Source: Burkholderiaceae bacterium (GTDB lineage Bacteria; Pseudomonadota; Gammaproteobacteria; Burkholderiales; Burkholderiaceae_C). Taken from it: DNA of 64,000 nucleotides. Both the position numbers and the translations under genes were made by a program. This document shows, piece after piece, positions 6,662 through 58,336 of this stretch (its first letter is position 1; each line of letters starts with the position of its first letter). The notes under the pieces were generated by a model. The model searched no databases, had not been told where the DNA came from, and was given only the letters and a program-made list of their open reading frames with translations. The stretch covers positions 2,410 through 66,409 of the forward strand of contig JBCKPH010000001.1 of assembly GCA_038901755.1 (NCBI GenBank). Direction: 5' to 3'.

Positions 6662-7611
6662 AGCGCTGAGGATTTTAGAAAGGGATGGTAGTCCCCGGTG
6701 CGCCCCAGGGGAGTCGCCGTGCGGATGGTGGCCACCGTTTCGATTGCAACGCGATTTTCTTCAAGACCGAATCCGCGTCCGACAAGCACCTCCTGATAGC
6801 TGCGCGTGTGCAGGTCGGTAAAGCCTTCCGAGAATTCAATCTCGTTCCCATCGAGGGTGATGCAGCGGTACGTGCGCTGCCCCTTGGCGCGCAGTTCATG
6901 CGGCACATCATCTACGTCCACCGACAGGAACCAGCGCACACGGGCACGCTCGTATTCCAGAAAACCTGCAGCCTTGGTGTCAGAGAGGTGATGAACCTGG
7001 TTCGCCTGCAGAGCGCCAAACACAAAATGCAGCATGTCGAAAAAATGCACACCAATGTTCGTGGCGATCCCGCCCGATTTCTTGATGTCACTCTTCCATG
7101 ATTGCAAATACCAGTGCCCCCGAGATGTGACATACGTGAGTTCGACGTCATGCTTGGCAGCAACGGCCTGACCGCGAGTTTGATCCCTGAGCGCAATGAT
7201 CGCGTCGTGCAGCCTGAGTTGCAGGATGGTGTTGATCTTGCAGCCAGTCTCCCGCTCGATGTCCAGCAGACCGTCAATGTTCCAGGGATTGAGAACCAGG
7301 GGTTTCTCGCAGATGACATGCGCGCCCGATCGAAGAGCAAAGCGCATGTGCGAGTCATGCAGATAGTTGGGCGAACAAATGGAAACATAGTTGACTGCGT
7401 CGGCGCTCTTCGATCGACGCAGTTTGTCAATGTGCCGATCAAACCGCTCAAATTCGGTGAAGAAATCCGCGTCCGGGAAGTAACTGTCGAGGACCCCGAC
7501 GGAATCCCTTGGATCAAGCGCGGCAACAAGGCGGTTGCCGGTGTCCTTGATGGCTCGCAGGTGGCGGGGCGCGACATAGCCGGCAACTCCAATAAGGGCA
7601 AAGTTCGTCAT
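6658..7611 (-). CDS. wbpB: Gfo/Idh/MocA oxidoreductase (WbpB/WlbA-like UDP-GlcNAcA 3-dehydrogenase)
   Basis: [26 protein letters not shown] Rossmann start. The ORF track start at 7764 was trimmed to the ATG at 7611. The stop overlaps the wbpD-like start. Confidence 0.85.
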
Positions 7612-11107: not shown

Positions 11108-12634
11108 CTACATCACCGCGCCGAGCTGCCAGGGAACAAACTCGTTCTGCCCGTAGCCATGCTGCTCGCTCTTGCTCGCCTGGCCCGAGGCGGTGGCAAG
11201 CACCATCTCGAAAATGCGCTGTCCCATGTCCTGCACCGAGCAATTGCCGTCGATGATCTCGCCGCAGTTGATGTCCATGTCGTCCTGCTGCCGCTGCCAC
11301 AGCGCGCTGTTGGTGGCAAGCTTCAGTGACGGCGATGGGGCGCAGCCGTAGGCCGAGCCGCGTCCCGTGGTGAAGCAGATCAGATTCGCGCCGCCCGCCA
11401 CCTGGCCGGTCGCGCTGACCGGGTCGTAGCCCGGCGTGTCCATGTAGACGAAGCCGTTCGCCGTAACCGGCTCGGCGTACTCGTAGACCGCCTGCAGATT
11501 CGAGGTGCCGCCCTTGGCGACCGCGCCCAGCGATTTTTCGAGAATGGTGGTGAGCCCGCCGGCCTTGTTGCCGGGCGTGGGGTTGTTGTTCATCTCGCCG
11601 CCGTTGATGCGGGTGTAATGCTCCCACCATTTCAGCCGCGCAAGCAGTTTTTCGCCGACTTCCCGCGACACGGCGCGCCGCGTCAGCAGGTGCTCGGCGC
11701 CGTAGATCTCGGGCGTTTCGCTCAGGATCGCGGTGCCGCCATGGGCCACCAGCAGGTCCACCGCCGCGCCCAGCGCCGGGTTCGCGCTGATGCCGCTGTA
11801 GCCGTCGGAGCCGCCGCATTGCAGGCCGATCATGATGTGCGCGGCGCTGCACGGTTCGCGCCTGGAGCGGTTCGCGCCAGGCAGCATCTGGCGGACCAGG
11901 GCGATGCCGCGCTCGATCGTCTTGCGCGTGCCGCCGCTGTCCTGGATGTTGAACACCTGCAGCGTTTCGCCTTCGCGCAGGCTGCTGTGCGCCAGCCAGG
12001 CGTTGATTTGATTCGACTCGCAGCCGAGCCCGACCACCAGCACGGCGGCAAAGTTGGCGTGCGTCGCGTAGCCGGCCAGGGTGCGCTGCAGCACCTGCAT
12101 GCCCAGGCCTTCGGTGTCCATGCCGCAACCGGTGCCGTGCGTCAGTGCCACCACGCCGTCGACATGGGGGAAGTCGGCCAACGCCTGCGGATTGATATGG
12201 CGTGAAAAATGGTCGGCAATGGCCCTGGCCACGGTCGCCGAGCAGTTGACGCTGGACAGGATGCCGATGTAGTTGCGGGTGGCGACGCGCCCGTCGTCTC
12301 GCTTGATGCCCATGAAGTTCGCCAGCCGCGGCTCTGTCACCGGTTTGACGTCGGCACCGAAGGCGTAGTCGCGCTCGAAATTGCCCTGGTCCGGGCCCAT
12401 GTCCAGGTTGTGGCTGTGCACATGCTCGCCTGCGGCAATCGGCTTGCTGGCAAATCCGACGATCTGGTTGTAGCGCCGCACCGGCGCGCCGGCCTCGATC
12501 GCGCGCAGCGCGAGCTTGTGGCCAGCCGGGATCAGGCCGCGCACCGTGACGCCTTCGGCCAGGGTGCCGCCCACCAGTTGCCGGCGCGCAATCAGCACGT
12601 CGTCATTGGGGTGCAGCTTGATGAAAGGCGCCAT
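11108..12634 (-). CDS. UxaA-family sugar-acid dehydratase (altronate/galactarate dehydratase type)
   Basis: N-terminal SAF domain (IKLHPNDDVLIARRQL...AGHKLALRAIEAGAPVRRYNQIVG) plus a large GD_AH_C-type domain. 508 aa. Confidence 0.85.
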   Translation of the reverse strand: MAPFIKLHPNDDVLIARRQLVGGTLAEGVTVRGLIPAGHKLALRAIEAGAPVRRYNQIVGFASKPIAAGEHVHSHNLDMGPDQGNFERDYAFGADVKPVTEPRLANFMGIKRDDGRVATRNYIGILSSVNCSATVARAIADHFSRHINPQALADFPHVDGVVALTHGTGCGMDTEGLGMQVLQRTLAGYATHANFAAVLVVGLGCESNQINAWLAHSSLREGETLQVFNIQDSGGTRKTIERGIALVRQMLPGANRSRREPCSAAHIMIGLQCGGSDGYSGISANPALGAAVDLLVAHGGTAILSETPEIYGAEHLLTRRAVSREVGEKLLARLKWWEHYTRINGGEMNNNPTPGNKAGGLTTILEKSLGAVAKGGTSNLQAVYEYAEPVTANGFVYMDTPGYDPVSATGQVAGGANLICFTTGRGSAYGCAPSPSLKLATNSALWQRQQDDMDINCGEIIDGNCSVQDMGQRIFEMVLATASGQASKSEQHGYGQNEFVPWQLGAVM

Positions 12635-43258: not shown

Positions 43259-44476
43259 TTAGCTGAACTTCGTGCGCGGGTAGGTCGGTTTGGCGGCGGC
43301 AAATTCGTTGGGCCAGACCACATCGATGTCGGTCTTCGAGGCCTGCAACAGGGCGGCCCGCCCACCCTGGTTCTGCCCGTCGACGAACTTGGTCGGTCCG
43401 TAGGGAAGGATGTGATCGGACCAGGTGCTGGCCGCCAGTGCGGCGATGACCTTTTCCTTGTCGGCGCTGCCGGCCCGCTGCAGGGCATCGGCGTATAGCA
43501 TGATGCTGGTGTAGGAGAGGTAGACCTCGAAGGTGAAGAGACCGCCTCCGGCCTCCACTCGCTTGCGCATGGCGACCGCCTTGGCGCTCTTGGGGTTGTA
43601 CCAGTGGTTGAAGTCCATCATGTGCTGCGCCACCTCGGGCTGCTCCTGAACCAGCTTGAAGTTGAAGCCGCCGCCAAGCACGCTGAACATGGCCGCCACG
43701 TCGACCTTTTGCTGGTGCAGGGTTCGGGCCAGCAGCACGTACTCGTTCTGGTAATTGCTCATGATCACCAGATCGGGCTTGAGGCCTTTGATGCGCAGCG
43801 CCACGTTGGAAAAATCGCGCGTCGGGTTGGCGTGCTTGATGGTCTCCAGGGGCTGGATGCCGATGCTCGGCAACTTGTCCCCCAGCAACTTGGCCGTTCC
43901 GGTGCCGAACTCCGATTCCTCATGAACCAGCACCGCCGTCTTGGCGACGCCGTTCGCGGACTTGTTGATCTCACCCAGGGCCAGAATGGCGTCGTCGACG
44001 CATTTCCCGAATCCGGGCTTGAGACGGAACACATTCTTCAGTCCCCGGTTCACGATCAGGTCGGACGCACCGACGTCGATCAGGAACGGCGTGTTGTACT
44101 TGGCGGCGGCCTGCGTCGCGGGAAGGGCGATGCCGCTGGCGAAACAACCCAGGTAGGCTGAGACGCCTTCTTGCTGCATGCGCTCAACCTCGCTCACACC
44201 GATCTCGGGACGCGACTGGGAGTCTCCCAGCAGGGCGTCCAGTTTGGCTCCGCCCATGGACCTGATACCGCCCGCCGCATTGACCTCGTCAATGGCCATG
44301 CGCGCGCCCATGCGCGACTGCCCACCGCTGTAGGCCAGTCCGCCGCTGACCGGATGTACCAGGCCGATCTTGACTGCGGCCGGCTGAGCCAGCAGCAGTC
44401 CGGGTGCGCCAAGTGCGGCGCTGGCCGCGCCCGCTTGGAGAATCAAACGGCGAGAAAGACGAATGCTGGATGTCAT
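43259..44476 (-). CDS. ABC transporter substrate-binding protein (LivK/Peripla_BP_6 type)
   Basis: Tat/Sec-like signal SRRLILQAGAASAALGAPGLLLA. Family fold pattern. Confidence 0.85.
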   Translation of the reverse strand: MTSSIRLSRRLILQAGAASAALGAPGLLLAQPAAVKIGLVHPVSGGLAYSGGQSRMGARMAIDEVNAAGGIRSMGGAKLDALLGDSQSRPEIGVSEVERMQQEGVSAYLGCFASGIALPATQAAAKYNTPFLIDVGASDLIVNRGLKNVFRLKPGFGKCVDDAILALGEINKSANGVAKTAVLVHEESEFGTGTAKLLGDKLPSIGIQPLETIKHANPTRDFSNVALRIKGLKPDLVIMSNYQNEYVLLARTLHQQKVDVAAMFSVLGGGFNFKLVQEQPEVAQHMMDFNHWYNPKSAKAVAMRKRVEAGGGLFTFEVYLSYTSIMLYADALQRAGSADKEKVIAALAASTWSDHILPYGPTKFVDGQNQGGRAALLQASKTDIDVVWPNEFAAAKPTYPRTKFS

Positions 44477-44505
44477 GCGGAGTCCTCAGGAAGGTGGAAG
44501 TGACA

Positions 44506-44525
44506 TTGTTCCATCAGTAGAACAA
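44506..44525. promoter_or_regulatory. Inverted repeat TTGTTC-N8-GAACAA in the 5' leader of the liv operon
   Basis: Seen directly. Lies between the predicted -10 box and the binding-protein start codon. Confidence 0.3.
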
Positions 44526-44534
44526 TTGAACTGC

Positions 44535-44563
44535 ACTATGACTGCGTCGCGGCGCTGTGTCAA
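44535..44563 (-). promoter_or_regulatory. Sigma70-like promoter for the liv operon (TTGACA-17 nt-CATAGT on the minus strand)
   Basis: Consensus -35 box with 17-nt spacing, about 60 nt upstream of the ATG at 44476. Confidence 0.4.
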
Positions 44564-44609
44564 CTCGATGCGTGCTTGATGGATGTGCCGACGCAGTTAT
44601 TTTTACCAA

Positions 44610-44646
44610 GCAAGTGCTTGCCAAAAATATGCGGATTTGGTATGGT
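44610..44646 (+). promoter_or_regulatory. Sigma70-like promoter TTGCCA-17 nt-TATGGT, overlapped by inverted repeat GCAAG-TG-CTTGC (possible TetR operator)
   Basis: -35 box at 44618-44623, -10 box at 44641-44646. The inverted repeat at 44610-44621 overlaps the -35 box. Confidence 0.4.
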
Positions 44647-44653
44647 GCGATGC

Positions 44654-45355
44654 ATGAGCCTGTCGCCCGCGCGCGCCGTTCACGCGCTGCGCACCCCCCT
44701 GCCGAGGACCGAGCCTGGCGACCCGACCGGGCTGCCGCGGCCGCGCGGCCGGCCGCGCAAGACGCCTGACGAGCGCGACGACGGAAACCGACGCCTGGCG
44801 CTGGTCGCTTGCGCCGCGCGGCTGTTCCGGCGCAAGGGCTTCGACGCCACCAGCACGCGCGATATCGCCGCCGCCGTGGGCATGCGCAGCGGCTCGCCGT
44901 TCTACCACTTCAAGAGCAAGGGCGCGCTGCTGTACGCGGTGATGGAAGAGGGCATGGGTTCGGCGATCGCGCGCCAGCAAAGCGTCCTGCAGCGGGCGCA
45001 ACAACAGGCACTTGACCCGGCGGGTCAGTTGGCGCTGCTAATCCGCAACCATTTCGACGTGCTGCTCGGTCCGGACAGCGACTTCATTCCGGTCATGTTG
45101 TACGAATCGCGCTCAATCACGGCGCGCCAGCGCAAGCTGCTGGCCAAGCTGAAGGACGAATACGAGGCGTCGTGGACGCCGGTGCTGCAGGCGCTGCACG
45201 CCGCCGGCCGCCTGCGAGCTGAAGTGAAGCTGGCGCGATTGCTGATGTTCGGCGCGCTCAACTGGTCGGTGAAATGGTTCGACCGGAAGAAGGACGCCTC
45301 GCTCGACGAACTGGCCAAGGCGGCGATGGCGTTATTTGTGCAGGTGGGCGCATGA
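44654..45355 (+). CDS. TetR/AcrR-family transcriptional regulator
   Basis: RGRPRKT...RRLALVACAARLFRRKGFDATSTRDIAAAVGMRSGSPFYHFKSKGALL. Start is ambiguous (ATG at 44642 or 44654). 44654 would make the mRNA nearly leaderless given the predicted -10 box. Confidence 0.8.
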   Translation: MSLSPARAVHALRTPLPRTEPGDPTGLPRPRGRPRKTPDERDDGNRRLALVACAARLFRRKGFDATSTRDIAAAVGMRSGSPFYHFKSKGALLYAVMEEGMGSAIARQQSVLQRAQQQALDPAGQLALLIRNHFDVLLGPDSDFIPVMLYESRSITARQRKLLAKLKDEYEASWTPVLQALHAAGRLRAEVKLARLLMFGALNWSVKWFDRKKDASLDELAKAAMALFVQVGA

Positions 45356-45371
45356 GCCACGCGGCGAGGGG

Positions 45372-45390
45372 CCCCATGCCGGGCATGGGG
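45372..45390 (+). other. Perfect 9-1-9 palindrome CCCCATGCC-G-GGCATGGGG after the TetR gene
   Basis: Seen directly. No T-tract follows, so its function (terminator or operator) is open. Confidence 0.35.
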
Positions 45391-45467
45391 ATCGACGCCA
45401 AGGCGAATGGCGCTAGGACGCCGACGCCCGGGCGCGGGCTGATCCACCAAATTTCGGAGGTGGCCCA

Positions 45468-46505
45468 ATGACGTACAGATCGGTATTCCGCCCCGGCCTG
45501 TTCGAGCGCAAGGTCGTGCTGGTGACGGGGGGCGGTTCGGGCATTGGCCGCTGCACGGCGCATGAGCTGGCCGCGCTCGGCGCCCATGTCGTGCTGGTTG
45601 GGCGCAAGCTGGACAAGCTGCAAGCCGTGGCCGGCGAAATCGCTGCCGACGCAGCCGGCCAAGGCAGCGGAGTGAGTTTTCATGTTTGCGACATCCGGCA
45701 GGAAGACATGGTGCGTGACATGGTGGCAGCAGTCGTCGCCAGCCATGGCCAGATCGACGCATTGGTCAACAATGCCGGCGGCCAGTACATGGCGCCGCTG
45801 GAGCAGATCTCGGCCAAGGGCTGGGACGCGGTGCTGCACACCAATCTGACCGGCGGCTTCCTGATGGCGCGCGAGTGCTATCTGCAGTCCATGCAGCAGC
45901 AGGGCGGCGCCATCGTCAACATCGTTGCCGATATCTGGGGCTCGATGCCCGGCATGGGCCACAGTGGTGCGGCGCGCGCCGGCATGGTCAGCTTCACCGA
46001 GACGGCGGCGCTGGAGTGGGCCAAAAGCGGAGTCCGGGTGAACGCCGTGGCGCCGGGCTACATCGCCTCCAGCGGCATGGACCATTACCCGAGCGAGGCC
46101 GGCCCCCGGTTGCGCCAGATGAGCCAGACCGTGCCGGCAGGCCGCTTTGGCAACGAGGCCGAGACTGCGGCGGCGATTGTGTTCCTGCTTAGCCCGGCGG
46201 CGTCCTTCATCAGCGGCAGCGTGTTGCGGGTCGACGGCGCGCGGCCGCAGGTGCGCATGGGCTGGGGCCAGGTGGCCGCGCCCGCGGACGTGCAGCTGCG
46301 CGATGCGGTCAAGCCCTACGACGGGTTTCACCGGGCAGTGACGCCCAAAGTATTGAGGCAAGACCCTCACCCCTACCCTCTCCCGCAAGCGGGAGAGGGG
46401 GTTGATGTAACTTCTCCCTCTCCCTCCGGAGGGGAGCAGGAATCTTCTCCCTCCTCGTCCGGGACAGGGCGGGCACGTTCTCCCTCTCCCGGCGGGAGAG
46501 GGTAG
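45468..46505 (+). CDS. SDR-family oxidoreductase (AtuB / trans-2-enoyl-CoA reductase-like) with repeat-encoded C-terminal tail
   Basis: VVLVTGGGSGIGRC, SGAARAG. The last 47 aa and the TAG stop lie inside the repeat array 46364..46514. Confidence 0.85.
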   Translation: MTYRSVFRPGLFERKVVLVTGGGSGIGRCTAHELAALGAHVVLVGRKLDKLQAVAGEIAADAAGQGSGVSFHVCDIRQEDMVRDMVAAVVASHGQIDALVNNAGGQYMAPLEQISAKGWDAVLHTNLTGGFLMARECYLQSMQQQGGAIVNIVADIWGSMPGMGHSGAARAGMVSFTETAALEWAKSGVRVNAVAPGYIASSGMDHYPSEAGPRLRQMSQTVPAGRFGNEAETAAAIVFLLSPAASFISGSVLRVDGARPQVRMGWGQVAAPADVQLRDAVKPYDGFHRAVTPKVLRQDPHPYPLPQAGEGVDVTSPSPSGGEQESSPSSSGTGRARSPSPGGRG

Positions 46506-46514
46506 GGGTGAGGG
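46364..46514 (+). repeat. Hairpin-repeat array A (4 units, 151 bp) with inverted termini CCCTCACCCCTACCCTCTCCCGC / GCGGGAGAGGGTAGGGGTGAGGG
   Basis: Seen directly. CT-rich arms (C/G)TTCTCCCT recur at 46411, 46444 and 46477 (33-bp spacing). Confidence 0.85.
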
Positions 46515-46522
46515 CGACGACG

Positions 46523-48190
46523 ATGGCAATTTATCAATCATCGTGGAACCCGCAAAGTGGCGCGGCTCTGCAGCGCAGCCAGGCCATGAGCGAGCGTATC
46601 GCTCAGTTGCGAGCGCTGGAGCAGCGCGCGGCCCTTGCCTCGGCCAAATCGAAACCGGTGTTCGAGAAACGCGGCCAACTGCTGCCGCGCGAGCGAATCG
46701 CGCTGCTGCTGGACCCGGGCGCGCCCTGGCTGCCGCTTTGTTCGCTGGCCGGCTTCATGCAGGACGGCCACGAGGTGGCGAAATCGGTGCCCGGTGGCGG
46801 CATTGTGGCCGGCATCGGTTTCATCAGCGGCGTGCGCTGCATGGTGGTGGCGAGCGATTCGGGCATCGACGCCGGCGCGATGCAGGCCAAGGGGCTGGAC
46901 AAGATGCTGCGGGTGCAGGAGATCGCGCTGCAGAACAAGCTGCCGTTCGTGTTTCTGGTGGAGAGCGCCGGCGCCAACCTGATGCTGTACCGGGTCGAAG
47001 GCTTTGTCCAAGGCGGCGCCCTGTTTCGCAACCTGGCGCGGCTGTCGGCGGCCGGCCTTCCGGTGATCACCGTGCAGCATGGCTCGGGCACCGCCGGCGG
47101 CGCCTACATGCCGGGCCTGTCCGATGTGGTGATCATGGTGCGAGGCCGGTCCCGCGCCTTCCTGGCCGGGCCGCCGCTGCTGATGGCCGCCACCGGCGAG
47201 GTGGCGACCGAAGAGGAACTCGGTGGCGCCGAGATGCACAGCACCATCTCCGGGCTGGGCGAGTACCTGGCCGAGGACGACCGGCAGGCGCTGGGCATCG
47301 CTCGCGAAGTGGTGGCTCGCAGCGCCCTCACCGCAACCGTCACCCGGGGGGAGAGCAGGCAAGACGGACACCCTCTCCCGCTTGCGGGAGAGGGCAGGGG
47401 TGAGGGTCCCCAACCACCCTGCCACCCGGCCGATGGGCTGCTTGGCATCATGCCCGACAACCTGCGCGAGCCGCTCGACATGCGCGAGGTGATGGCGCGC
47501 ATCGTTGATGGCTCCGAGCTGCTGGAGTTCAAGGCGCTGTACGGCGCGCAGACGCTCTGCGTGCAGGCCGCGCTCGGTGGCTACTCAGTCGGCATCATCA
47601 GCAACAACGGGCCGATCGACGTCGCCGGAGCGAACAAGGCGACGCACTTCATCCAGTTGATGTGCCAGCAGGGTTCGCCGCTGATCTACCTGCAAAACAC
47701 CACCGGCTACATGGTCGGCAAGGAGAGCGAGCAGGGCGGCATGATCAAGCATGGCTCGAAGATGATCCAGGCGGTGACCAACGCCAGCGTGCCGCAGTTC
47801 ACCGTGATGTGCGGCGCCTCCTACGGCGCGGGCAACTACGGCATGTGTGGCCGTGCCTACGCGCCGCGTTTTCTGTTCAGCTGGCCGAGCGCGCGCACCG
47901 CGGTGATGGGTGGCGAACAGGCGGCGCGGACCATGCAGATCGTCACCGAGGCGGCGCTGCTGCGCAAGGGGCTGACTGTCAACCCGGCCGAATCGAAAAC
48001 GCAGTACGACAAGATCGTGGCGCGCTTCGAGTCCCAGGCCGACGCTTTCTACACCTCGGGCCTGCTGCTGGACGACGGCGTGATCGACCCGCGTGATACC
48101 CGCGATGTGCTGATCCAGTGCCTGCAGATGGCCGACGAAGCGGCGCGTCGCACGCTGCGGCCGATGCAGTTCGGGGTGGCCCGAATGTAA
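46523..48190 (+). CDS. Acyl-CoA carboxylase carboxyltransferase (beta) subunit, AtuC/LiuB/MccB-like
   Basis: Carboxyl_trans family (GQLLPRERI...GGAYMPGLSD...GASYGAGNYGMCGRAY). Start set to the ATG at 46523. Confidence 0.9.
   Translation: MAIYQSSWNPQSGAALQRSQAMSERIAQLRALEQRAALASAKSKPVFEKRGQLLPRERIALLLDPGAPWLPLCSLAGFMQDGHEVAKSVPGGGIVAGIGFISGVRCMVVASDSGIDAGAMQAKGLDKMLRVQEIALQNKLPFVFLVESAGANLMLYRVEGFVQGGALFRNLARLSAAGLPVITVQHGSGTAGGAYMPGLSDVVIMVRGRSRAFLAGPPLLMAATGEVATEEELGGAEMHSTISGLGEYLAEDDRQALGIAREVVARSALTATVTRGESRQDGHPLPLAGEGRGEGPQPPCHPADGLLGIMPDNLREPLDMREVMARIVDGSELLEFKALYGAQTLCVQAALGGYSVGIISNNGPIDVAGANKATHFIQLMCQQGSPLIYLQNTTGYMVGKESEQGGMIKHGSKMIQAVTNASVPQFTVMCGASYGAGNYGMCGRAYAPRFLFSWPSARTAVMGGEQAARTMQIVTEAALLRKGLTVNPAESKTQYDKIVARFESQADAFYTSGLLLDDGVIDPRDTRDVLIQCLQMADEAARRTLRPMQFGVARM
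47325..47406 (+). repeat. Hairpin-repeat array B (1 degenerate + 1 intact unit), ending CCCTCTCCCGCTTGCGGGAGAGGGCAGGGGTGAGGG
   Basis: Same terminal motif as arrays A and C. Left boundary is approximate. Confidence 0.75.
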
Positions 48191-48203
48191 TGAAAGCGCC
48201 AGG

Positions 48204-48380
48204 AAGTTTCGGTCGCTTCGCTCCCGCGATACTTTTGAGCGGTTTAAGTAGCGAAAAAGCTTGGGGGATTTGCCGGTGCGCCTGCGCCTGCGAAGCTGGG
48301 CAGCGTCGACAAATCAATGGTCGACCTACGCTATGCACGCATCGAGGCATTACGCTACGGTCGACCCCGGCGCTTTTTCG
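48204..48380 (+). repeat. Intergenic repeat, copy 1 (about 80-bp element split by a 98-bp insert at 48267..48364)
   Basis: 48204-48266 plus 48365-48380 align with 57401-57482 at roughly 75% identity (AAGTTTCG.TCGCT...GATACTTT...AAAAAGCTTGG...CCCGGCGCTTTTT). Confidence 0.6.
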
Positions 48381-48397
48381 AAAAATGGAGAACGCAA

Positions 48398-49591
48398 TTG
48401 AACTACACCCACGAACATCTTGAAATCCAGAAGACGCTGAAGCGCTACATCGACGAGCACATCAATCCCCACGTGGACGAATGGGAAGAGGCCGAGATGT
48501 TTCCGGCGCATGTAGTGTTCAAGGGGCTGGGCCAGCTTGGTCTGCTGGGCCTGACCAAACCCGAGGAGTATGGCGGCGCCGGGCTCGACTACTCGTACTC
48601 GGTGGCCATGGCCGAGGCGCTGGGCCATATCGACTGCGGTGGCGTGCCGATGGCGATTGGTGTGCAAACCGACATGGCCACACCTGCGCTGGCGCGCTTT
48701 GGCAGCGACGAGTTAAGGCGCGAGTTCCTGGCGCCGGCGATTGCCGGTGACATGGTGGGTTGCATTGGCGTCAGCGAGCCCGGCGCCGGCAGCGACGTGG
48801 CTTCCATCAAGAGTCATGCGCGCAAGGACGGTGACGACTACCTGATCAGCGGCCAGAAGATGTGGATCACGAACAGCCTGCAGGCGGACTGGATGTGCAT
48901 GCTGGTCAACACCGGCGACGGCCCGAGCGGAGCGGGCAACAATCCGCACAAGAACAAGAGCCTGGTGATGGTGCCGATGCGGGATGGCCCGAACGGCAAG
49001 CTCACCAAGGGCATCGAGGTGGCGCGCAAGATTCGCAAGATCGGCATGAATTCCAGCGACACCGGCCTGATCTACTTCGACGAGGTGCGGGTGCCGCAAC
49101 GCAATCGCATCGGCGCCGAGGGCTCGGGCTTCATCTACCAGATGATGCAGTTTCAGGAGGAGCGACTTTGGGCCGCTGCCAAGGCCCTGCTTTCGCTGAA
49201 CAAGCTGATCGAAGTCACGGTCGAATGGGCGCAGCAGCGCAAGCTGTTTGGCGCCACGCTGGCCGATCAACAGTGGGTGCAGTTCAAGCTGGCCGAGGTC
49301 AAGACCGAGGTCGAATGCCTGCGCGCGCTCACCTACCGGGCCTGCGACCTCTATGTGTCGGGCCAGGACGTGACCGAACTGGCTTCCATGGCCAAGCTCA
49401 AGGCCGGCCGGCTTGGGCGCGAGGTGGCCGACACCTGCCTGCAGTTCTGGGGCGGCATGGGCTTCACCTGGGAGAACAAGGTGTCGCGCGCCTACCGCGA
49501 CGGCCGACTCGGCTCCATCGGCGGCGGCGCCGACGAGGTGATGCTGGGCATCATCGCGAGGTACATGGGCATGGCAAAGAAACGCCCATGA
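48398..49591 (+). CDS. Acyl-CoA dehydrogenase (AtuD/LiuA-like)
   Basis: ACAD family. Start set to a TTG at 48398, 7 nt after a GGAG, giving MNYTHEHLEIQKTL. Confidence 0.85.
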   Translation: MNYTHEHLEIQKTLKRYIDEHINPHVDEWEEAEMFPAHVVFKGLGQLGLLGLTKPEEYGGAGLDYSYSVAMAEALGHIDCGGVPMAIGVQTDMATPALARFGSDELRREFLAPAIAGDMVGCIGVSEPGAGSDVASIKSHARKDGDDYLISGQKMWITNSLQADWMCMLVNTGDGPSGAGNNPHKNKSLVMVPMRDGPNGKLTKGIEVARKIRKIGMNSSDTGLIYFDEVRVPQRNRIGAEGSGFIYQMMQFQEERLWAAAKALLSLNKLIEVTVEWAQQRKLFGATLADQQWVQFKLAEVKTEVECLRALTYRACDLYVSGQDVTELASMAKLKAGRLGREVADTCLQFWGGMGFTWENKVSRAYRDGRLGSIGGGADEVMLGIIARYMGMAKKRP

Positions 49592-51753
49592 AGCGCTTGC
49601 TGATCGCCAACCGCGGCGAAATCGCCCGCAGGGTGATCCGCAGCGCGCACCGAATGGGCATCGAAACCGTTGCGGTGTATTCCGACGCCGACTCCAGCGC
49701 GCTGCATGTGGCCGAGGCGACAACGGCCTTTGCGCTGGGCGGCAACGCCTCGGCCGACAGTTACCTGCGCATCGACCGGCTGCTCGAAGCCGCGCGCGCC
49801 ACCGGTGCCGACGCGGTGCACCCGGGATATGGCTTCCTGAGTGAAAACGCCGGCTTCGCCCAGTCCGTGCTGGATGCCGGTCTGACCTGGGTCGGCCCGC
49901 CGCCCGCCGCCATTCGGGCCCTGGGCAACAAGGCCAGCGCCAAGCAGTTGGCACAGCGGCTGGGCGTAGCCTGCCTGCCTGGTTACCAGGGCGAGGACCA
50001 GACGGACGCGCGTTTTGCCGCCGAGGCGCGAAGAATAGGCTATCCGGTGATGGTCAAGGCCAGCGCCGGCGGCGGTGGTCGTGGTATGCGGCTGGTCGGC
50101 AGCGCCGAGCACTTGTCTGCCGCCTTGCAGGGCGCGCGCTCCGAGGCGTCAAGCAGCTTCGGCAGCGCTGAACTGCTGATCGAACGCGCCTTGCTGGACC
50201 CGCGCCATGTCGAGGTGCAGGTGTTCGCCGATGCGCATGGCCACTGCATCCATCTGGGTGAGCGCGACTGTTCGGTGCAGCGGCGGCATCAGAAGATCAT
50301 CGAGGAGTCGCCCAGCCCGGCGGTCGATTCAGCGCTGCGCGAGGCCATGGGCCAATGCGCCGTGAAGCTGGCGCTCGCGGCAGGCTATGTGGGTGCGGGA
50401 ACGGTGGAGTTTCTGCTCGAGGCGAGCCCTCACCCCAACCCTCTCCCGGAGGGTGAGGGGGTCCGAAGCAACCTCCCTTTTCCGGAGGGTGAGGGGGTCC
50501 GAAGCAATCTTCCTCTCCCGGATAGAGAGGGGGTCCGAAGCAACCTCCCTTTTCCGGAGGGTGAGGGAGTCCGAAACAGTCTTCCTCTCCCGGATAGAGA
50601 GGGCGTCAAAAACAATCTCCCTCTCCCGCTTGCGGGAGAGGGTAGGGGTGAGGGCATCTGTGAGTTCTTCCTGATGGAAATGAACACCCGGCTGCAGGTG
50701 GAGCACCCGGTGACGGAATTGCTGACCGGCCTGGACCTGGTGGAGTGGCAGTTGCGCATCGCGCGCGGCGAGCCGCTGCCGCTGACGCAGGAGCAGGTGC
50801 GGTGGCAGGGCCATGCGATCGAGGTGCGGCTCTGCGCCGAGGACGAAAACTTCGCGCCGCACTCGGGCCTGGTCCGGCAGTTCCAGGCGCCCGAGGGGGT
50901 GCGCTTCGACCACGCCCTGCACCAGGACCTGGCGGTGCCGCCCTATTACGACTCGATGCTGGGCAAGATCATCAGCCACGGGCTGGACCGCGCCCAGGCC
51001 ATCGCGCGGCTGCGCGCCGCGCTGGCCCAGACCCTTGTGCTGGGCCTGCCGACGAATCGAGGATTTCTGGACGCCTGTCTGGCGCATCCGCAGTTTGTTG
51101 CTGGCGAAGCGCGGATTCCGTTCCTGGCGAACCAGGCCGGCGCCCTGCGTGAGCAACTTCAACAGCGGGAGCGGCGCTTGTTGTTGCCTTGCGTGGTGGC
51201 GCTGCTCTACATGGATGCGCCGGCGACGGGCACCGGCCTGCCATGCCCATTTGCCAGGCCCGCGAAAGTGCGTTGGCGCGACCAGTTGTTGGCCCTATCG
51301 GTGCTGGAGCTCGGGCCAGGCCTGCTGCGCGTCGAGTCAGAGGGGCGGCGGCATGATGTGCTGTGGACGCGCCAGGATGCGGGGTTGCTGCGGGTTACGC
51401 TGGACGGGTTGAGGCACCAGGTTGCCGCCGTGCGGCTGGACGTTCAGCGCTGGCATCTGCAATGCGATGGCGTTGAACTCTGGTTGGAAGACGCGTCCTT
51501 CGAGCCGGCGATACAGGCGGGCGGCTCTCGTGCGACAGACGAACTGCGGGCGCCGTTCAACGGCAAGTTGATCGCGCTACCTGCCAGCGCCGGCCTCTCG
51601 CTGCGCCGCGGCGACCCGCTTGCCGTGATCGAATCGATGAAACTCGAGCATGCGCTATGCGCGCCGCGCGACCTGACTGTCAAGACCCTGTCGGTGCAAG
51701 TCGGCCAGCAGGTCGCGACGGCGCAGTTGCTGATGACCTTCGAACCGGCATGA
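49588..51753 (+). CDS. Acyl-CoA carboxylase biotin carboxylase + BCCP (alpha) subunit, AtuF/LiuD/MccA-like, carrying a 76-codon repeat insertion
   Basis: MKRLLIANRGEIA, MVKASAGGGGRGMR, EMNTRLQVEHPVTE, and the biotinyl-Lys motif IESMKLEH. ATGA overlaps at both ends. Confidence 0.9.
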   Translation: MKRLLIANRGEIARRVIRSAHRMGIETVAVYSDADSSALHVAEATTAFALGGNASADSYLRIDRLLEAARATGADAVHPGYGFLSENAGFAQSVLDAGLTWVGPPPAAIRALGNKASAKQLAQRLGVACLPGYQGEDQTDARFAAEARRIGYPVMVKASAGGGGRGMRLVGSAEHLSAALQGARSEASSSFGSAELLIERALLDPRHVEVQVFADAHGHCIHLGERDCSVQRRHQKIIEESPSPAVDSALREAMGQCAVKLALAAGYVGAGTVEFLLEASPHPNPLPEGEGVRSNLPFPEGEGVRSNLPLPDREGVRSNLPFPEGEGVRNSLPLPDREGVKNNLPLPLAGEGRGEGICEFFLMEMNTRLQVEHPVTELLTGLDLVEWQLRIARGEPLPLTQEQVRWQGHAIEVRLCAEDENFAPHSGLVRQFQAPEGVRFDHALHQDLAVPPYYDSMLGKIISHGLDRAQAIARLRAALAQTLVLGLPTNRGFLDACLAHPQFVAGEARIPFLANQAGALREQLQQRERRLLLPCVVALLYMDAPATGTGLPCPFARPAKVRWRDQLLALSVLELGPGLLRVESEGRRHDVLWTRQDAGLLRVTLDGLRHQVAAVRLDVQRWHLQCDGVELWLEDASFEPAIQAGGSRATDELRAPFNGKLIALPASAGLSLRRGDPLAVIESMKLEHALCAPRDLTVKTLSVQVGQQVATAQLLMTFEPA
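50427..50654 (+). repeat. Hairpin-repeat array C (6 units, exact 36-bp period, 228 bp) with inverted termini
   Basis: The linker (TCCGAAGCAA in the first three copies, TCCGAAACAG and TCAAAAACAA in the last two) starts at 50462, 50498, 50534, 50570 and 50606. Termini are CCCTCACCCCAACCCTCTCCCG / CGGGAGAGGGTAGGGGTGAGGG. Confidence 0.9.
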
Positions 51754-53009
51754 GCGATTCGACGATGAACCCATCAGGCGATGCTGCGGCAGCCTTGCGC
51801 GAGGACATCGTCGCCCTGACCGACACGGTGCGGCGCTTTGCCTTGAGCGAGGTCGCGCCCCACGTGGAAGCCTGGGAGGAAGCTGGCGAGATACCGCGCG
51901 CGCTGTACCGCAGGGCCGCCGAACTGGGCCTGCTTGGCCTGGGTTACCCGGAGTCGCTGGGCGGCACGCCGGCACCGTTTGCGCTGCGCCATGCGATGTC
52001 GGTGACGCTGAGCCGCTACGGCGGCAGCGGCGGTCTGATGGCCAGTCTGTTTTCGCTCAACATCGGCCTGCCGCCGCTGCTGCGTCATGGCAGCGCGGCG
52101 CTGCAGCAGGAAATCGTGCCGCCGGTGCTGCGTGGCGAAAAAATTGCCGCGCTGGCTATCACCGAGCCGGGCGGCGGATCCGATGTAGCCAGCATCCGCA
52201 CTACCGCCAGGCGCGAAGGCGATGACTATCTGATCAACGGCGAAAAGACGTTCATCACCTCGGGCATGAGGGCCGACTGGATCACCATGGCGGTGCGCAC
52301 CGGCGAGCCGGGCAGCAAGGGCGAAGAAGGAAGCGCGCACAAGGACGAGAGCAACAACCCGCACAAGGGTGAGAGCAGCAACGCGCACCGAGGCGCGCGA
52401 GGCATTTCGATGATCGTTGTTCCCGGCGCTGCGCTGGGCCTGAGCCGCAGCGCGCTGCGCAAGATGGGTTGGTGGTGTTCCGACACGGCGCACCTGCGCA
52501 TGGACAACATGCGGGTGCCGGCGCGTTACCTGCTTGGGGAAGAGGGCGGCGGCTTCAAGATCATCATGAGCAATTTCAACGGCGAGCGGCTCGGCATGTC
52601 GGCCATGGCGCTGGGTTTTTCCCAGGCCTGCTACGACGAGGCGCTGGACTGGGCACGCCAGCGCCAGACCTTCGGCGTGGCGTTGGTCCAGCACCAGGTG
52701 ATCCGCCACAAGCTGGTCGACATGCAAATGCGCATTGCATCGACCCAGGCCTGGCTGGACGCGGTGACGGCGCGCCTGGACGCGGGCGACAGCTCGCCCG
52801 ACTGGGTGGCCCAGGTCTGCATGCTGAAGAACCACGCGACGCAGGCCATGCAGTTCTGCGCCGACCAGGCGGTGCAGATCCTGGGCGGCATGGGTTTCAT
52901 GCGCGGCACCCGCAGCGAGCGCATCTACCGCGAGGTCAAGGTCATGATGATTGGCGGCGGCGCCGAGGAAATCATGAAGGAACTGGCCGCGCGCCAACTC
53001 GGAATCTAG
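51750..53009 (+). CDS. Acyl-CoA dehydrogenase
   Basis: ACAD family (ITEPGGGSD...). ATGA overlap with the alpha subunit gene. Contains an in-frame 24-nt tandem repeat. Confidence 0.85.
   Translation: MSDSTMNPSGDAAAALREDIVALTDTVRRFALSEVAPHVEAWEEAGEIPRALYRRAAELGLLGLGYPESLGGTPAPFALRHAMSVTLSRYGGSGGLMASLFSLNIGLPPLLRHGSAALQQEIVPPVLRGEKIAALAITEPGGGSDVASIRTTARREGDDYLINGEKTFITSGMRADWITMAVRTGEPGSKGEEGSAHKDESNNPHKGESSNAHRGARGISMIVVPGAALGLSRSALRKMGWWCSDTAHLRMDNMRVPARYLLGEEGGGFKIIMSNFNGERLGMSAMALGFSQACYDEALDWARQRQTFGVALVQHQVIRHKLVDMQMRIASTQAWLDAVTARLDAGDSSPDWVAQVCMLKNHATQAMQFCADQAVQILGGMGFMRGTRSERIYREVKVMMIGGGAEEIMKELAARQLGI
52335..52388 (+). repeat. In-frame tandem repeat, 24-nt unit, about 2.3 copies
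   Basis: GCGCACAAGGACGAGAGCAACAAC / CCGCACAAGGGTGAGAGCAGCAAC match at 20 of 24 positions, followed by GCGCAC... The repeat encodes AHKDESNN-PHKGESSN-AH. Confidence 0.6.
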
Positions 53010-58309: not shown

Positions 58310-58336
58310 CTTTCTCCCTGCCGGAGGGAGAGGGAA
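58310..58336 (-). repeat. Solo hairpin unit of the CT/GA repeat family (minus strand TTCCCTCTCCCTCCGGCAGGGAGAAAG)
   Basis: Resembles unit 2 of array A (TTCTCCCTCTCCCTCCGGAGGGGAGCAGG). Lies in the 46-bp livG-livF spacer. Confidence 0.5.

Follow-up and report, generated by a model that had tools for sequence, protein, structure and literature searches.

A translated BoxC/PIT/TM repeat at the SDR/carboxyltransferase junction of a Burkholderiaceae acyl-CoA carboxylase operon

What becomes of two neighbouring genes of an operon when a palindromic repeat lies across their junction? In a 64-kb window (the whole stretch of DNA analysed, 64,000 nucleotides from a Burkholderiaceae bacterium), a composite palindromic element (46364..46514, no strand assigned) spans the 3′ end of an SDR gene and stops just short of a carboxyltransferase (CT) gene. 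An earlier note, made from the letters alone, had proposed that the element donates to the SDR its last 47 residues and its stop codon, and to the CT gene its only Shine-Dalgarno (SD)-like sequence, possibly making the start of the latter structure-gated. The element, the SDR stop and the CT ATG were all found where that note had placed them.

The SDR ORF (45468-46505, + strand) encodes 345 amino acids and ends with the TAG at 46503..46505 (+), which lies inside GGGTAGGGG; no earlier in-frame stop occurs in the ORF, and a second, back-up TGA follows in frame at 46509-46511. As delimited by Pfam and ortholog alignments, the native core comprises residues 1-298 (45468..46361, +) and belongs to the AtuB-like citronellol/citronellal dehydrogenase family (Pfam adh_short_C2 and adh_short, E = 1e-47 to 1e-49), with orthologs aligning as far as residue 296-298 and no further. 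The 47 extra codons (46362..46502, +) are repeat-encoded except for the first two bases of codon 299. They specify DPHPYPLPQAGEGVDVTSPSPSGGEQESSPSSSGTGRARSPSPGGRG, a low-complexity tail with ten S, nine P and nine G among its 47 residues (60% S/P/G). In an AlphaFold model built on a 37-sequence alignment, residues 303-345 had a pLDDT of 31-40 and no secondary structure, in a whole model that was itself poor (mean pLDDT 58.6) and could not prove disorder of the tail. The tail is probably a disordered, tolerated by-product.

Comparison of SDR lengths and C-termini across related genomes agreed with an element-derived tail. Among the 120 closest orthologs, about 110 are 293-306 aa long (49 of them exactly 298 aa), end at ...TPKVFQ(x)* and have no comparable tail. 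Every ortholog that does have a similar tail carries repeat DNA, and tails of this kind in genomes lacking the repeat were what would have spoken against the proposal. A further protein search used the 89 aa of C-terminus and tail as query; it returned only 46 short fragments, with one more read-through tail, P0121. The derivation of the SDR's tail and stop codon from the element is thus supported by sequence comparison. Mending of the gene by precise excision was considered and rejected: removing the element restores no stop in the window (judged by eye) or in the related locus L083, and the ancestral SDR stop must therefore have been lost after or during insertion.

The element was also present in two further assemblies, GCA_038901875.1 and GCA_038902075.1, which differ from the window by two synonymous changes over an aligned 261-nt region, one at the element's first base (C to T) and the other upstream of the element. 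Short-read metagenome-assembled genomes are error-prone at repeats, and mis-assembly or a mis-called ORF could in principle mimic such a junction. However, the three assemblies agree on the element except for the one synonymous substitution, its presence in the two additional ones speaks against mis-assembly, filled sites homologous to this one are found in independent genomes and metagenomes, and the ORF contains no earlier stop. We therefore give an artefact hardly any credence.

The element is 151 bp long and its termini are perfect 23-nt inverted repeats, the arms (46364-46386 and 46492-46514) being 100% complementary with 105 nt between them. A 21-nt terminus pattern occurs five times in the window, with none expected from 100 shuffles. 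When the region 46350-46530 was folded, the minimum free energy was -115.3 kcal/mol (z = -7.6; none of 200 shuffles equally stable), with the right terminus paired to the left as the earlier note had suggested. That note had also described an array of four hairpin units; four do exist, but they are not equal, the end units (-20.6 and -19.8 kcal/mol) being perfect and the internal pair (-16.4 and -10.9 kcal/mol) degenerate. The element is composed of two inverted 33-36-nt units flanking two degenerate 33-nt hairpin units. The left unit (46364..46399, -) has the reverse complement CCCTCTCCCGCTTGCGGGAGAGGGTAGGGGTGAGGG and the translation PHPYPLPQAGEG; it is identical to 50619-50654(+) and shares 35 of 36 positions with 47371-47406(+). 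The right unit (46482..46514, +) reads CCCTCTCCCGGCGGGAGAGGGTAGGGGTGAGGG. The internal units (46400..46477, +) follow a 33-nt period and form direct-repeat family D1, with three direct copies starting at 46412, 46445 and 46478 (spacing 33 and 33).

Judged by its sequence, the repeat family is the already described BoxC/PIT/TM (intrastrand triplex) family and not a new one. Under the ITxF definition (PMC4666352), a TM unit consists of one C-block and two G-blocks, consecutive, each 6-15 nt long with at most one mismatch and separated by loops of 1-6 nt. A tri-block pattern search recovered five such units in the 64-kb window, at 46364-46399(-), 46482-46514(+), 47371-47406(+), 50427-50459(-) and 50619-50654(+). 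The layout is CCCTCTCCC-loop-GGGAGAGGG-loop-GGGGTGAGGG, arranged in an inverted pair as in E. coli, and Table 1 of PMC4666352 lists TMECO sequences with exactly the blocks of the right unit. A blastn search with the 151-bp element found matches in 4631 of 5426 E. coli genomes; at the best places, an intergenic inverted pair without annotation matched both element ends at 86% identity, and this pair is 106 bp in size and of the same architecture as the element. The window units likewise occur singly (47371-47406) or as an inverted pair (46364-46514), the two forms in which TM units are found. All five are translated or straddle a junction; the intergenic location described for E. coli, a non-defining trait, is thus not shared. 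TM units are made of C-blocks and G-blocks, and five of their six reading frames are open. It is because of these open frames that the SDR ORF runs 47 codons through the element. The notion that this reflects an 'ORF-transparent design' and hence selection was dropped, five open frames of six being ordinary for a 36-nt GC-rich sequence.

Other repeat classes were considered and set aside. With its length of 151 bp (MITEs range from about 50 to 500 bp) and its perfect 23-nt terminal inverted repeats, the element resembles a MITE in size and termini. A classical MITE was nevertheless ruled out, as no flanking direct repeat, i.e. no target-site duplication, was present in the window, L012, L083, L084, L085 or L086. 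In the empty/filled pair L088/L086, compared by eye on the sequences because MAFFT mis-aligned them owing to the large insert, the flanks had diverged and no duplication was visible. No transposase was found among the operon genes scanned. A RAYT-mobilised REP/REPIN was ruled out because the tetranucleotide GTAG/CGTC is neither conserved nor correctly positioned: GTAG is confined to GGGTAGGGG, at the hairpin's 3′ side, whereas REP needs it at the 5′ end of the palindrome, and sibling and orthologous copies have GCAG, GTTG or GTCG in its place. Finally, BRE identity, defined by a match to the roughly 90-bp BRE consensus, was ruled out on sequence, TM blocks being absent from the BRE sequences in the supplement of PMC3110155. 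An Rfam 15 covariance-model scan of 44000-52000 (E <= 1) gave no match.

How, then, is the downstream gene started? The CT gene (46523..48190, +; Pfam Carboxyl_trans, E = 4e-114) encodes an acyl-CoA carboxylase carboxyltransferase subunit of the AtuC/geranyl-CoA carboxylase beta-like type. Its ATG agrees with the starts of orthologs, tblastn alignments of the N-terminus beginning at residues 1-5 in almost every relative that has retained the gene, and is the gene callers' choice in L081 and L082. The only alternative start found, a GTG at 46508, lies inside the element with GGGAGAGGG 5 nt upstream; its use is possible and less likely, with orthologous N-termini and gene callers favouring ATG 46523. 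Between the element's end at 46514 and this ATG lies the spacer CGACGACG (46515..46522, +), which has the 8 nt counted in the earlier note. Directly before it, the purine-rich end GGGGTGAGGG (46505..46514, +) was confirmed as the only SD-like sequence ahead of the CT start: in a scan for duplexes with the anti-SD 3-12 nt from the ATG, solely element bases paired (-5 to -7.9 kcal/mol), while the spacer itself gave -2.6 kcal/mol or weaker.

In most relatives with an adjacent CT gene, the stop codon of the SDR overlaps with the start of CT or lies right next to it (ATGA, or a distance of -8 to +8 nt), and their AAGGTG Shine-Dalgarno is placed within the SDR's last codons. The motif AAGGUG was found 5-8 nt upstream in ten of the 12 element-free starts scanned, pairing with the anti-SD at -5.8 kcal/mol. 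As reconstructed from these relatives, the ancestral SDR/CT junction is a translationally coupled ATGA overlap with its own SD, and it follows from this overlap and the SD in the SDR's end that the element broke the ancestral coupling. The suggestion that the element is a source of new regulation thus does not stand; given the arrangement in relatives, existing coupling was replaced rather than regulation created.

In the predicted fold, the purine-rich end pairs with 46364-46373, and the SD is paired to SDR codons 299-307. The pairing of the two termini raises the modelled cost of opening the CT ribosome-binding site to 30.5 kcal/mol, as compared to 11-23 kcal/mol in element-free relatives and 15-20 kcal/mol at other operon genes. 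A ribosome placed on the left terminus lowers the modelled cost for CT to 11.0 kcal/mol, and one at the SDR stop, which ends 17 nt ahead of the CT ATG, lowers it to 4.8 kcal/mol; all these energies describe equilibrium thermodynamics, without co-transcriptional folding or helicases. By position and in the model, the junction would therefore have the hallmarks of translational coupling, i.e. a stop near a start or a masked site. The structure-gated start proposed in the earlier note survives in part: the SD is masked in the fold, but the likeliest gate would be the ribosome on the SDR tail, which amounts to ordinary coupling by unmasking.

Together, these results make it likely, in our judgement, that the locus is a composite TM repeat at the AtuB-like SDR/CT junction of an atu/liu-type acyl-CoA carboxylase operon, a tolerated insertion across which coupling has been kept by unmasking. 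Before the element arrived, SDR and CT overlapped (ATGA) and were translationally coupled. With the element in place, the SDR ORF continues through it and stops only at the TAG/TGA found in one frame of the right terminus. On naked mRNA, the C-rich left terminus would lock the SD of CT in a perfect 23-bp terminal stem; ribosomes on the SDR tail would melt this stem and terminate beside the CT start, such that CT translation would stay coupled to SDR translation through unmasking and re-initiation. On the folding model, coupling has probably been preserved in this manner. Classical examples of coupling by unmasking are the MS2 coat-replicase pair and the E. coli IF3-L35-L20 operon. As modelled for the present junction, the downstream site is there sequestered by sequence of the upstream ORF and freed by translating ribosomes; unlike the repeat-borne, modelled structure here, theirs is native and experimentally proven.

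Alternatively, the element might be an evolved switch, such as an RNA thermometer or a device gated by a ligand, sRNA or protein, that sets CT output independently of SDR translation; this would be the structure-gated start of the earlier note in its strong form. An SD held in a perfect 23-bp stem and a ribosome-binding site very costly to open would suit such a switch, as would the retention of the element in three assemblies and the fact that C46364T, the change seen in L081 and L082, preserves pairing as a G-U wobble. Yet the entire left arm lies in a translated ORF and would be melted by each passing ribosome, a stem of -115 kcal/mol is much too stable for a thermometer, no Rfam match was obtained, nearest relatives are without the element, stop position and SD spacing vary between lineages, and unrelated repeats occupy the same site. 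We regard such a switch as quite improbable.

A role in RNA stability or processing, with the hairpin acting as an RNase III target or a 3′-exonuclease block that uncouples SDR and CT mRNA levels, would draw on a stem that is long, nearly perfect and intramolecular. Other small repeat families have been reported to affect mRNA stabilisation, termination or promoter activity (PMC3110155, PMC3184786). Action at the level of RNA stability or processing has been shown for REP/BIME, ERIC and Correia elements. Here, translation across the element should leave it mostly unfolded. A promoter/terminator scan returned nothing resembling either at the junction, and the hairpin is no intrinsic terminator, as it is followed by CGACGACGATGG and not by a U-tract; the E. 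coli studies that PMC4666352 cites saw neither terminator nor promoter activity of PIT/TM. A stability role, which is compatible with a tolerated, coupled insertion and does not exclude it, thus appears unlikely.

The distribution of repeats at this junction bears on the choice between a tolerated insertion and a designed switch. At least four SDR lineages have TM elements at the junction, and their nearest neighbours, 84-95% identical, are without. L037 and L074 have BRE repeats at this junction, and L006 and L010 a third, unrelated family; with two unrelated repeat families at the SDR/CT junction elsewhere, the junction can be taken as a permissive landing site. Outcomes differ between lineages. 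In L083-L085 the distance from terminus to ATG is 2 nt, so the 8-nt spacing is no conserved feature. The SDRs of L012 and L086 end about 100 nt short of CT after a tail of only 14-17 residues, and a ribosome at that stop leaves the modelled site masked (27.9 and 32.6 kcal/mol, respectively). Since these two operons presumably work although masked, the SDR need not be read through as far as the right end. Such differing outcomes, together with the unrelated repeats at the site, favour a tolerated insertion over a designed switch, and the arrangement looks not like an evolved regulator but like a product of recurrent repeat insertion that has survived as neutral or nearly so.

All five TM units of the window fall within 4.3 kb of one operon, and 36-mers are identical between sites. 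Besides the pair at the junction, a sibling unit lies in frame in the inter-domain linker of CT (47371..47406, +; HPLPLAGEGRGEG), and a sibling 228-nt TM-bounded array lies in frame in the biotin carboxylase subunit (50427..50654, +). The left terminus at the junction is read in the same frame as in this array, giving SPHPNPLPEGEG. The right end reads GRG* because 151 = 3x50+1, whereas the array, with 228 nt (3x76), reads GEGRGEG; both readings had been given in the earlier note. Could the tail then be a functional protein module under selection, such as a flexible linker or a peptide that docks onto the carboxylase subunits? PHPxPLPxGEG ... GEGRGEG motifs are in frame in the CT linker and the biotin carboxylase loop, at the same protein positions in other genera, and several members of one clade keep their read-through tails. 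However, about 110 of the 120 closest orthologs do without such a tail and L012 and L086 have cut it short, its internal sequence varies between lineages with the repeat-encoded ends alone conserved, its composition is dominated by S, P and G, and the 33-nt unit length keeps the frame automatically. A selected module is, on this evidence, very unlikely.

A further reading places the cause at the level of DNA: non-B structures of TM/BoxC (intrastrand triplex or cruciform) would stall replication and provoke repair, slippage or template switching, the features of the junction being incidental scars. Comparison of E. coli strains showed significantly more rearrangement at TM loci, and single-stranded DNA of the E. 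coli TM sequence was reported to fold in vitro into a stable purine-motif triplex, but no triplex was detected in vivo in E. coli (PMC4666352). At our locus, the flanks of filled sites have diverged from those of empty sites and show no target-site duplication, array lengths step by 33 nt within one clade (322 versus 344 aa), and the window's five TM units, identical 36-mers included, are clustered as described above. This reading would account for the element's origin and variation, not for continued CT translation, and complements the tolerated, coupled insertion; as the explanation of the locus it is possible but on balance unlikely.

The three operon sites, i.e. the SDR/CT junction, the CT linker and the biotin carboxylase loop, are re-used by TM across genera, and this re-use together with the clustering of five units in one operon is more than pure neutrality explains. 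We thus consider, with little confidence, that BoxC/TM landing in Comamonadaceae is non-random, through site- or structure-targeted copying of a repeat family that has been an orphan for 30 years, and an 'operon-safe' block design that imposes obligatory, hairpin-mediated coupling. The stop and SD at the TM 3′ end were counted in that block design. Near-identical TM copies occur within a genome.

How does the locus compare with known repeats? BoxC/PIT/TM(ECO) is known from over 260 genomes besides those of E. coli (Bachellier et al. 1990s; Hoyne et al. 2000, 2002; Holder et al. 2015, PMC4666352). The likeness covers the blocks CCCTCTCCC, GGGAGAGGG and GGG(G)TGAGGG, which are identical, loops of 3-6 nt, occurrence as single units or inverted pairs about 100 bp apart, locally variable flanks, and the lack of a transposase and of a target-site duplication. 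E. coli TM units were reported to be always intergenic, with no trend in ORF distance and no effect on expression (PMC4666352); in contrast, the units here are translated at three sites of one operon, with one copy across a gene junction, and the pair encloses extra 33-nt hairpin units where the E. coli pair encloses a unique spacer. BRE (Hot et al. 2011, PMC3110155) shares the host group (Comamonadaceae, Bordetella), the tandem arrays, the occasional position within ORFs or over ORF ends and, in L037 and L074, the very junction, but its sequence (GGCCGCCCAAGG...CCCCCTCGGGGGGCAGC...) makes it a separate family. RPE (Ogata et al. 2000), ERIC/YPAL, BOX and BRE are palindromic repeats tolerated in genes or their 3′ ends, where they add peptide (PMC3184786); RPE belongs to a different family and is not known to supply one gene's stop and the next gene's SD together. 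Neisseria REP2 (Morelle et al. 2003, in PMC3184786) is likewise a dispersed repeat that gives a downstream gene its ribosome-binding site, but adds a promoter and an ATG and is without terminal inverted repeats, whereas the present element contributes SD-like purines only.

The locus is a tidy case of a known phenomenon, not a new system; it illustrates known principles cleanly and leaves the current understanding of gene expression unchanged. It shows that the BoxC/PIT/TM family, widespread in more than 260 genomes (PMC4666352) and without known function or mobilisation mechanism, can be translated, that one TM copy can give a stop codon to one gene and a ribosome-binding site to the next, and that ancestral ATGA-type coupling is replaceable by repeat-borne coupling, which would be hairpin-mediated. 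For annotators, S/P/G-rich C-terminal tails like PHPxPLPxGEG...GRG* are to be read as repeat scars, not domains. Three repeat families at one operon junction offer a natural empty/filled series for the arrival and the cost of repeats.

By analogy, the closest functional counterpart of the junction element is MIRU (Supply et al. 1997, via PMC3184786). MIRUs also sit in junctions of polycistronic operons and carry ORFs, their ends overlap the adjacent genes, and translation is continuous across the insert (PMC3184786). They differ in belonging to an unrelated family and host and in having a small ORF of their own, whereas at the present junction it is the upstream gene that is lengthened. A MIRU-like bridging ORF of 39 aa was seen at 45352-45471.

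The repeat array between the genes for the AtuB-like short-chain dehydrogenase (SDR) and the carboxyltransferase subunit (CT) of an acyl-CoA carboxylase (46364-46514, 151 bp) has at its two ends 23-nt inverted repeats, complementary throughout (CCCTCACCCCTACCCTCTCCCGC and GCGGGAGAGGGTAGGGGTGAGGG). As the earlier note had described, it comprises four hairpin units with paired termini: one perfect unit at each end (-20.6 and -19.8 kcal/mol) and, between them, two degenerate ones (-16.4 and -10.9 kcal/mol) with a direct-repeat period of 33 nt. All other facts stated in that note were confirmed as well. The 64-kb window contains five copies of the 21-nt terminus pattern, against none in 100 shuffles. 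Folding prediction for the RNA spanning 46350-46530 gave a single long hairpin (-115.3 kcal/mol, z = -7.6). The same element is present in two further assemblies of the same species, which rules out an assembly artefact; relative to the window, they show two synonymous differences, a C-to-T at the element's first base and another upstream of the element.

Each terminal unit is laid out as CCCTCTCCC-loop-GGGAGAGGG-loop-GGGGTGAGGG, and the identical three blocks are found in 23 K-12 copies tabulated by Holder et al. 2015 (PMC4666352). The repeat is BoxC of E. coli, which Hoyne and Maher rediscovered as PIT (potential intrastrand triplex) and which subsequently received the name triplex motif (TM or TMECO; Holder et al. 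2015, PMC4666352); the family is known from >260 genomes (PMC4666352). In blastn, 4631 of 5426 complete E. coli genomes matched the element; the best matches covered both ends at 86% identity in a 106-bp unannotated intergenic inverted pair of the same architecture. Three other identities were rejected: the betaproteobacterial repeat element (BRE), which differs in sequence, a GTAG-tagged REP, after comparison of TM copies, and a MITE, as there is no target-site duplication. Rfam returned no match to the element.

A pattern built from the published definition (PMC4666352) located five TM units in the window: 46364-46399(-) and 46482-46514(+) at the left and right ends of the element, 47371-47406(+) inside CT, and 50427-50459(-) and 50619-50654(+) within an array in the biotin carboxylase gene. 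All five fall within 4.3 kb of one operon, and the three 36-nt units (46364-46399, 47371-47406 and 50619-50654) differ from one another by no more than 1 nt. This near-identity, together with the clustering, suggests that units were recently copied locally from site to site or that gene conversion took place among the sites.

The SDR ORF (45468-46505, 345 aa), a classical short-chain dehydrogenase labeled citronellol/citronellal dehydrogenase (AtuB-like) in databases, runs through the element to TAG 46503-46505, behind which a further in-frame stop follows (TGA 46509); each remaining forward frame is closed just past the first unit, by TGA 46403 or TAA 46408. For comparison, we collected the 120 closest SDR proteins (handles P) and 80 orthologous loci from Comamonadaceae and relatives (handles L). 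Exactly 298 aa was the length of 49 of the 120 proteins, and about 110 measured 293-306 aa, with the C-terminus reading ...TPKVFQ(K/S/DV)*. The 47 additional residues of the window SDR start exactly where its orthologs end (...TPKVLRQ|DPHPYPLP...), which bears out the proposal that both tail and stop codon derive from the element. Ser, Pro and Gly account for 60% of the tail, which has four hydrophobic residues, and AlphaFold assigned residues 303-345 a pLDDT of 31-40 and no secondary structure, in a model that is weak as a whole (mean pLDDT 58.6). Conservation of such tails between lineages is limited to their repeat-encoded ends. Most likely, the tail is a disordered, tolerated appendage.

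In most loci where SDR adjoins CT, SDR stop and CT start overlap as ATGA, or the two codons are no more than about 8 nt apart. AAGGTG is conserved in SDR Lys-Val codons 5-8 nt upstream of the CT start; of 12 element-free starts scanned, 10 have it paired with the anti-Shine-Dalgarno (anti-SD) sequence at -5.8 kcal/mol. This argues that the ancestral genes formed a tightly coupled pair. The window has AAAGTA at the homologous codons. Further ATGA overlaps of stop and start join TetR to a 39-aa ORF, this ORF to SDR, and acyl-CoA dehydrogenase to biotin carboxylase; the element split one link in the operon's chain of overlapping genes.

TM DNA occupies the SDR/CT junction in at least four SDR lineages, the nearest neighbors of each being free of it: the window, Hydrogenophaga sp. 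A37 (L012), a Hydrogenophaga-like metagenomic contig (L086), with an SDR sharing 95% identity with that of element-free L088, and a clade of metagenomic sequences (L083-L085, P0091, P0121). In the window, L083, L084, P0091 and P0121, SDR reaches the right terminus and stops there (GRG*, GRGQG* or GRGKG*); in L085 it stops ahead of the last unit. In L012 and L086, SDR already ends past the first unit (...GEGA*), an arrangement showing that it need not be read as far as the right terminus. Between the right terminus and the CT ATG lie 8 nt (window), 7 nt (L012 and L086) or 2 nt (L083-L085). Within one clade, tails differ by 22 residues, equivalent to two 33-nt units, which indicates that arrays grow and shrink by frame-preserving steps. 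Comparison of the empty/filled pair L088/L086 revealed no target-site duplication; the flanks have diverged and the AAGGTG motif is lost. At the same junction, L037 and L074 carry a BRE, and L006 and L010 a third repeat family. We conclude that the junction is a permissive landing site used by several repeat families, and that the window represents one among several viable outcomes of insertion there.

The BRE copies, of a type described by Hot et al. 2011, lie at about 6880-6965 (L037) and about 6906-7000 (L074) and read GGCCGCCC..AAG..CCCCC.GGGGGGCAGC..GTGGGGG, with the ancestral ATGA still seen at their left edge. The third, palindromic family (CCGTTCGCCCTGAGCTTGTCGAAGGGC ... GCCCGAACGGAG) immediately follows the ancestral ATGA, in about two copies in L006 (6880-7057) and one in L010 (6880-6976), and the relocated CT start is preceded by a GGAG from the repeat's 3′ end.

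The CT start itself (ATG 46523), 8 nt beyond the element's end as the earlier note had placed it, aligns with ortholog N-termini. Within the 25 nt upstream, anti-SD-pairing hexamers at 3-12 nt spacing were confined to the right terminus (-5.0 to -7.9 kcal/mol) and the 8-nt spacer contributed no pairing to the 16S 3′ end, in agreement with the suggestion that the terminus provides the only SD-like sequence for CT. A promoter scan detected no promoter-like site at the junction. The cost of opening -20 to +14 of the CT start, computed for naked mRNA at equilibrium, was 30.5 kcal/mol, compared with 11-23 kcal/mol in five element-free orthologs and 15-20 kcal/mol for the operon's other genes. Modeling a ribosome as a forced 30-nt footprint lowered this cost to 11.0 kcal/mol when placed on the left terminus and to 4.8 at the SDR stop. 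L083 followed the same trend (42.0, 20.5 and 6.7), and in L012 and L086 the trend extended to the left-terminus footprint alone. The structure-gated start postulated earlier is thus retained as a predicted masking of the SD, with the upstream ribosome as the putative gating agent. Ribosomes completing the SDR tail would melt the SD-hiding stem and terminate 17 nt upstream of the CT ATG, permitting re-initiation or fresh initiation there. In the most economical reading, CT is probably translated through such unmasking, which would functionally recreate the coupling once given by the ATGA overlap.

In-frame gene fusion, 3′-end extension or an intragenic position has been documented for RPE, ERIC/YPAL, BOX, RUP and BRE; MIRU reading frames overlap both neighbors in operon junctions, and Neisseria REP2 supplies a ribosome-binding site (PMC3184786). 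E. coli BoxC/TM, in contrast, has been reported to lie strictly between genes and to leave expression unaffected, with neither promoter nor terminator activity, no trend in distance to ORFs and raised structural variability at its loci (PMC4666352). Here, a single copy gives tail, stop and SD, replacing an ancestral overlap; what is new is the repeat family and the combination of features, in-frame or junction repeats themselves being already documented.

Elsewhere in the operon, the CT unit (47371-47406) lies in frame in the inter-domain linker (HPLPLAGEGRGEG; site region 47330-47406), just downstream of what looks like a decayed inverted partner (about 47335-47370, LTATVTRGES). The same protein position holds TM units in several other genera, with at least nine loci of other species occupied (L002, L004, L005, L006, L007, L016, L019, L023 and L057), some by full inverted pairs (TLTPTLSRMRERG ... 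PLPLAGEGRGEG); this suggests either that the insertion is old or that the site was re-used. In biotin carboxylase, an array of 228 nt (50427-50654), bounded by TM units and containing 36-nt internal ones, sits in frame in the ATP-grasp region (VEFLLE|...|FFLMEMNTRLQVEHP), and this loop is TM-occupied in at least one other genus: Hydrogenophaga aromaticivorans (L007) carries a short insert (ESPHPNPLPEGEGV) there at 11655-11687. Clustering and shared sites could reflect a single old insertion with later losses and gene conversion, or repeated targeted gains.

The gene order at 44576-51753 (TetR, AtuB-like SDR, carboxyltransferase, acyl-CoA dehydrogenase, biotin carboxylase/BCCP) resembles, by family names, the Pseudomonas atu cluster for acyclic terpene utilisation (geranyl-CoA carboxylase). 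Between TetR and SDR, the 39-aa ORF (45352-45471, MSHAARGPMPGMGIDAKANGARTPTPGRGLIHQISEVAQ), with an ATGA overlap at each end, covers a 113-nt spacer with a hairpin unique in the window (CCCCATGCCGGGCATGGGG, 45372-45390); given that TetR and SDR overlap directly in L084, L086 and L088, this region may be a second, MIRU-like junction insertion. Finally, an isolated short hairpin at 58315-58335 (CTCCCTGCCGGAGGGAGAGGG) has the GGGAGAGGG block without the third block and may be a degenerate TM remnant or a chance match.
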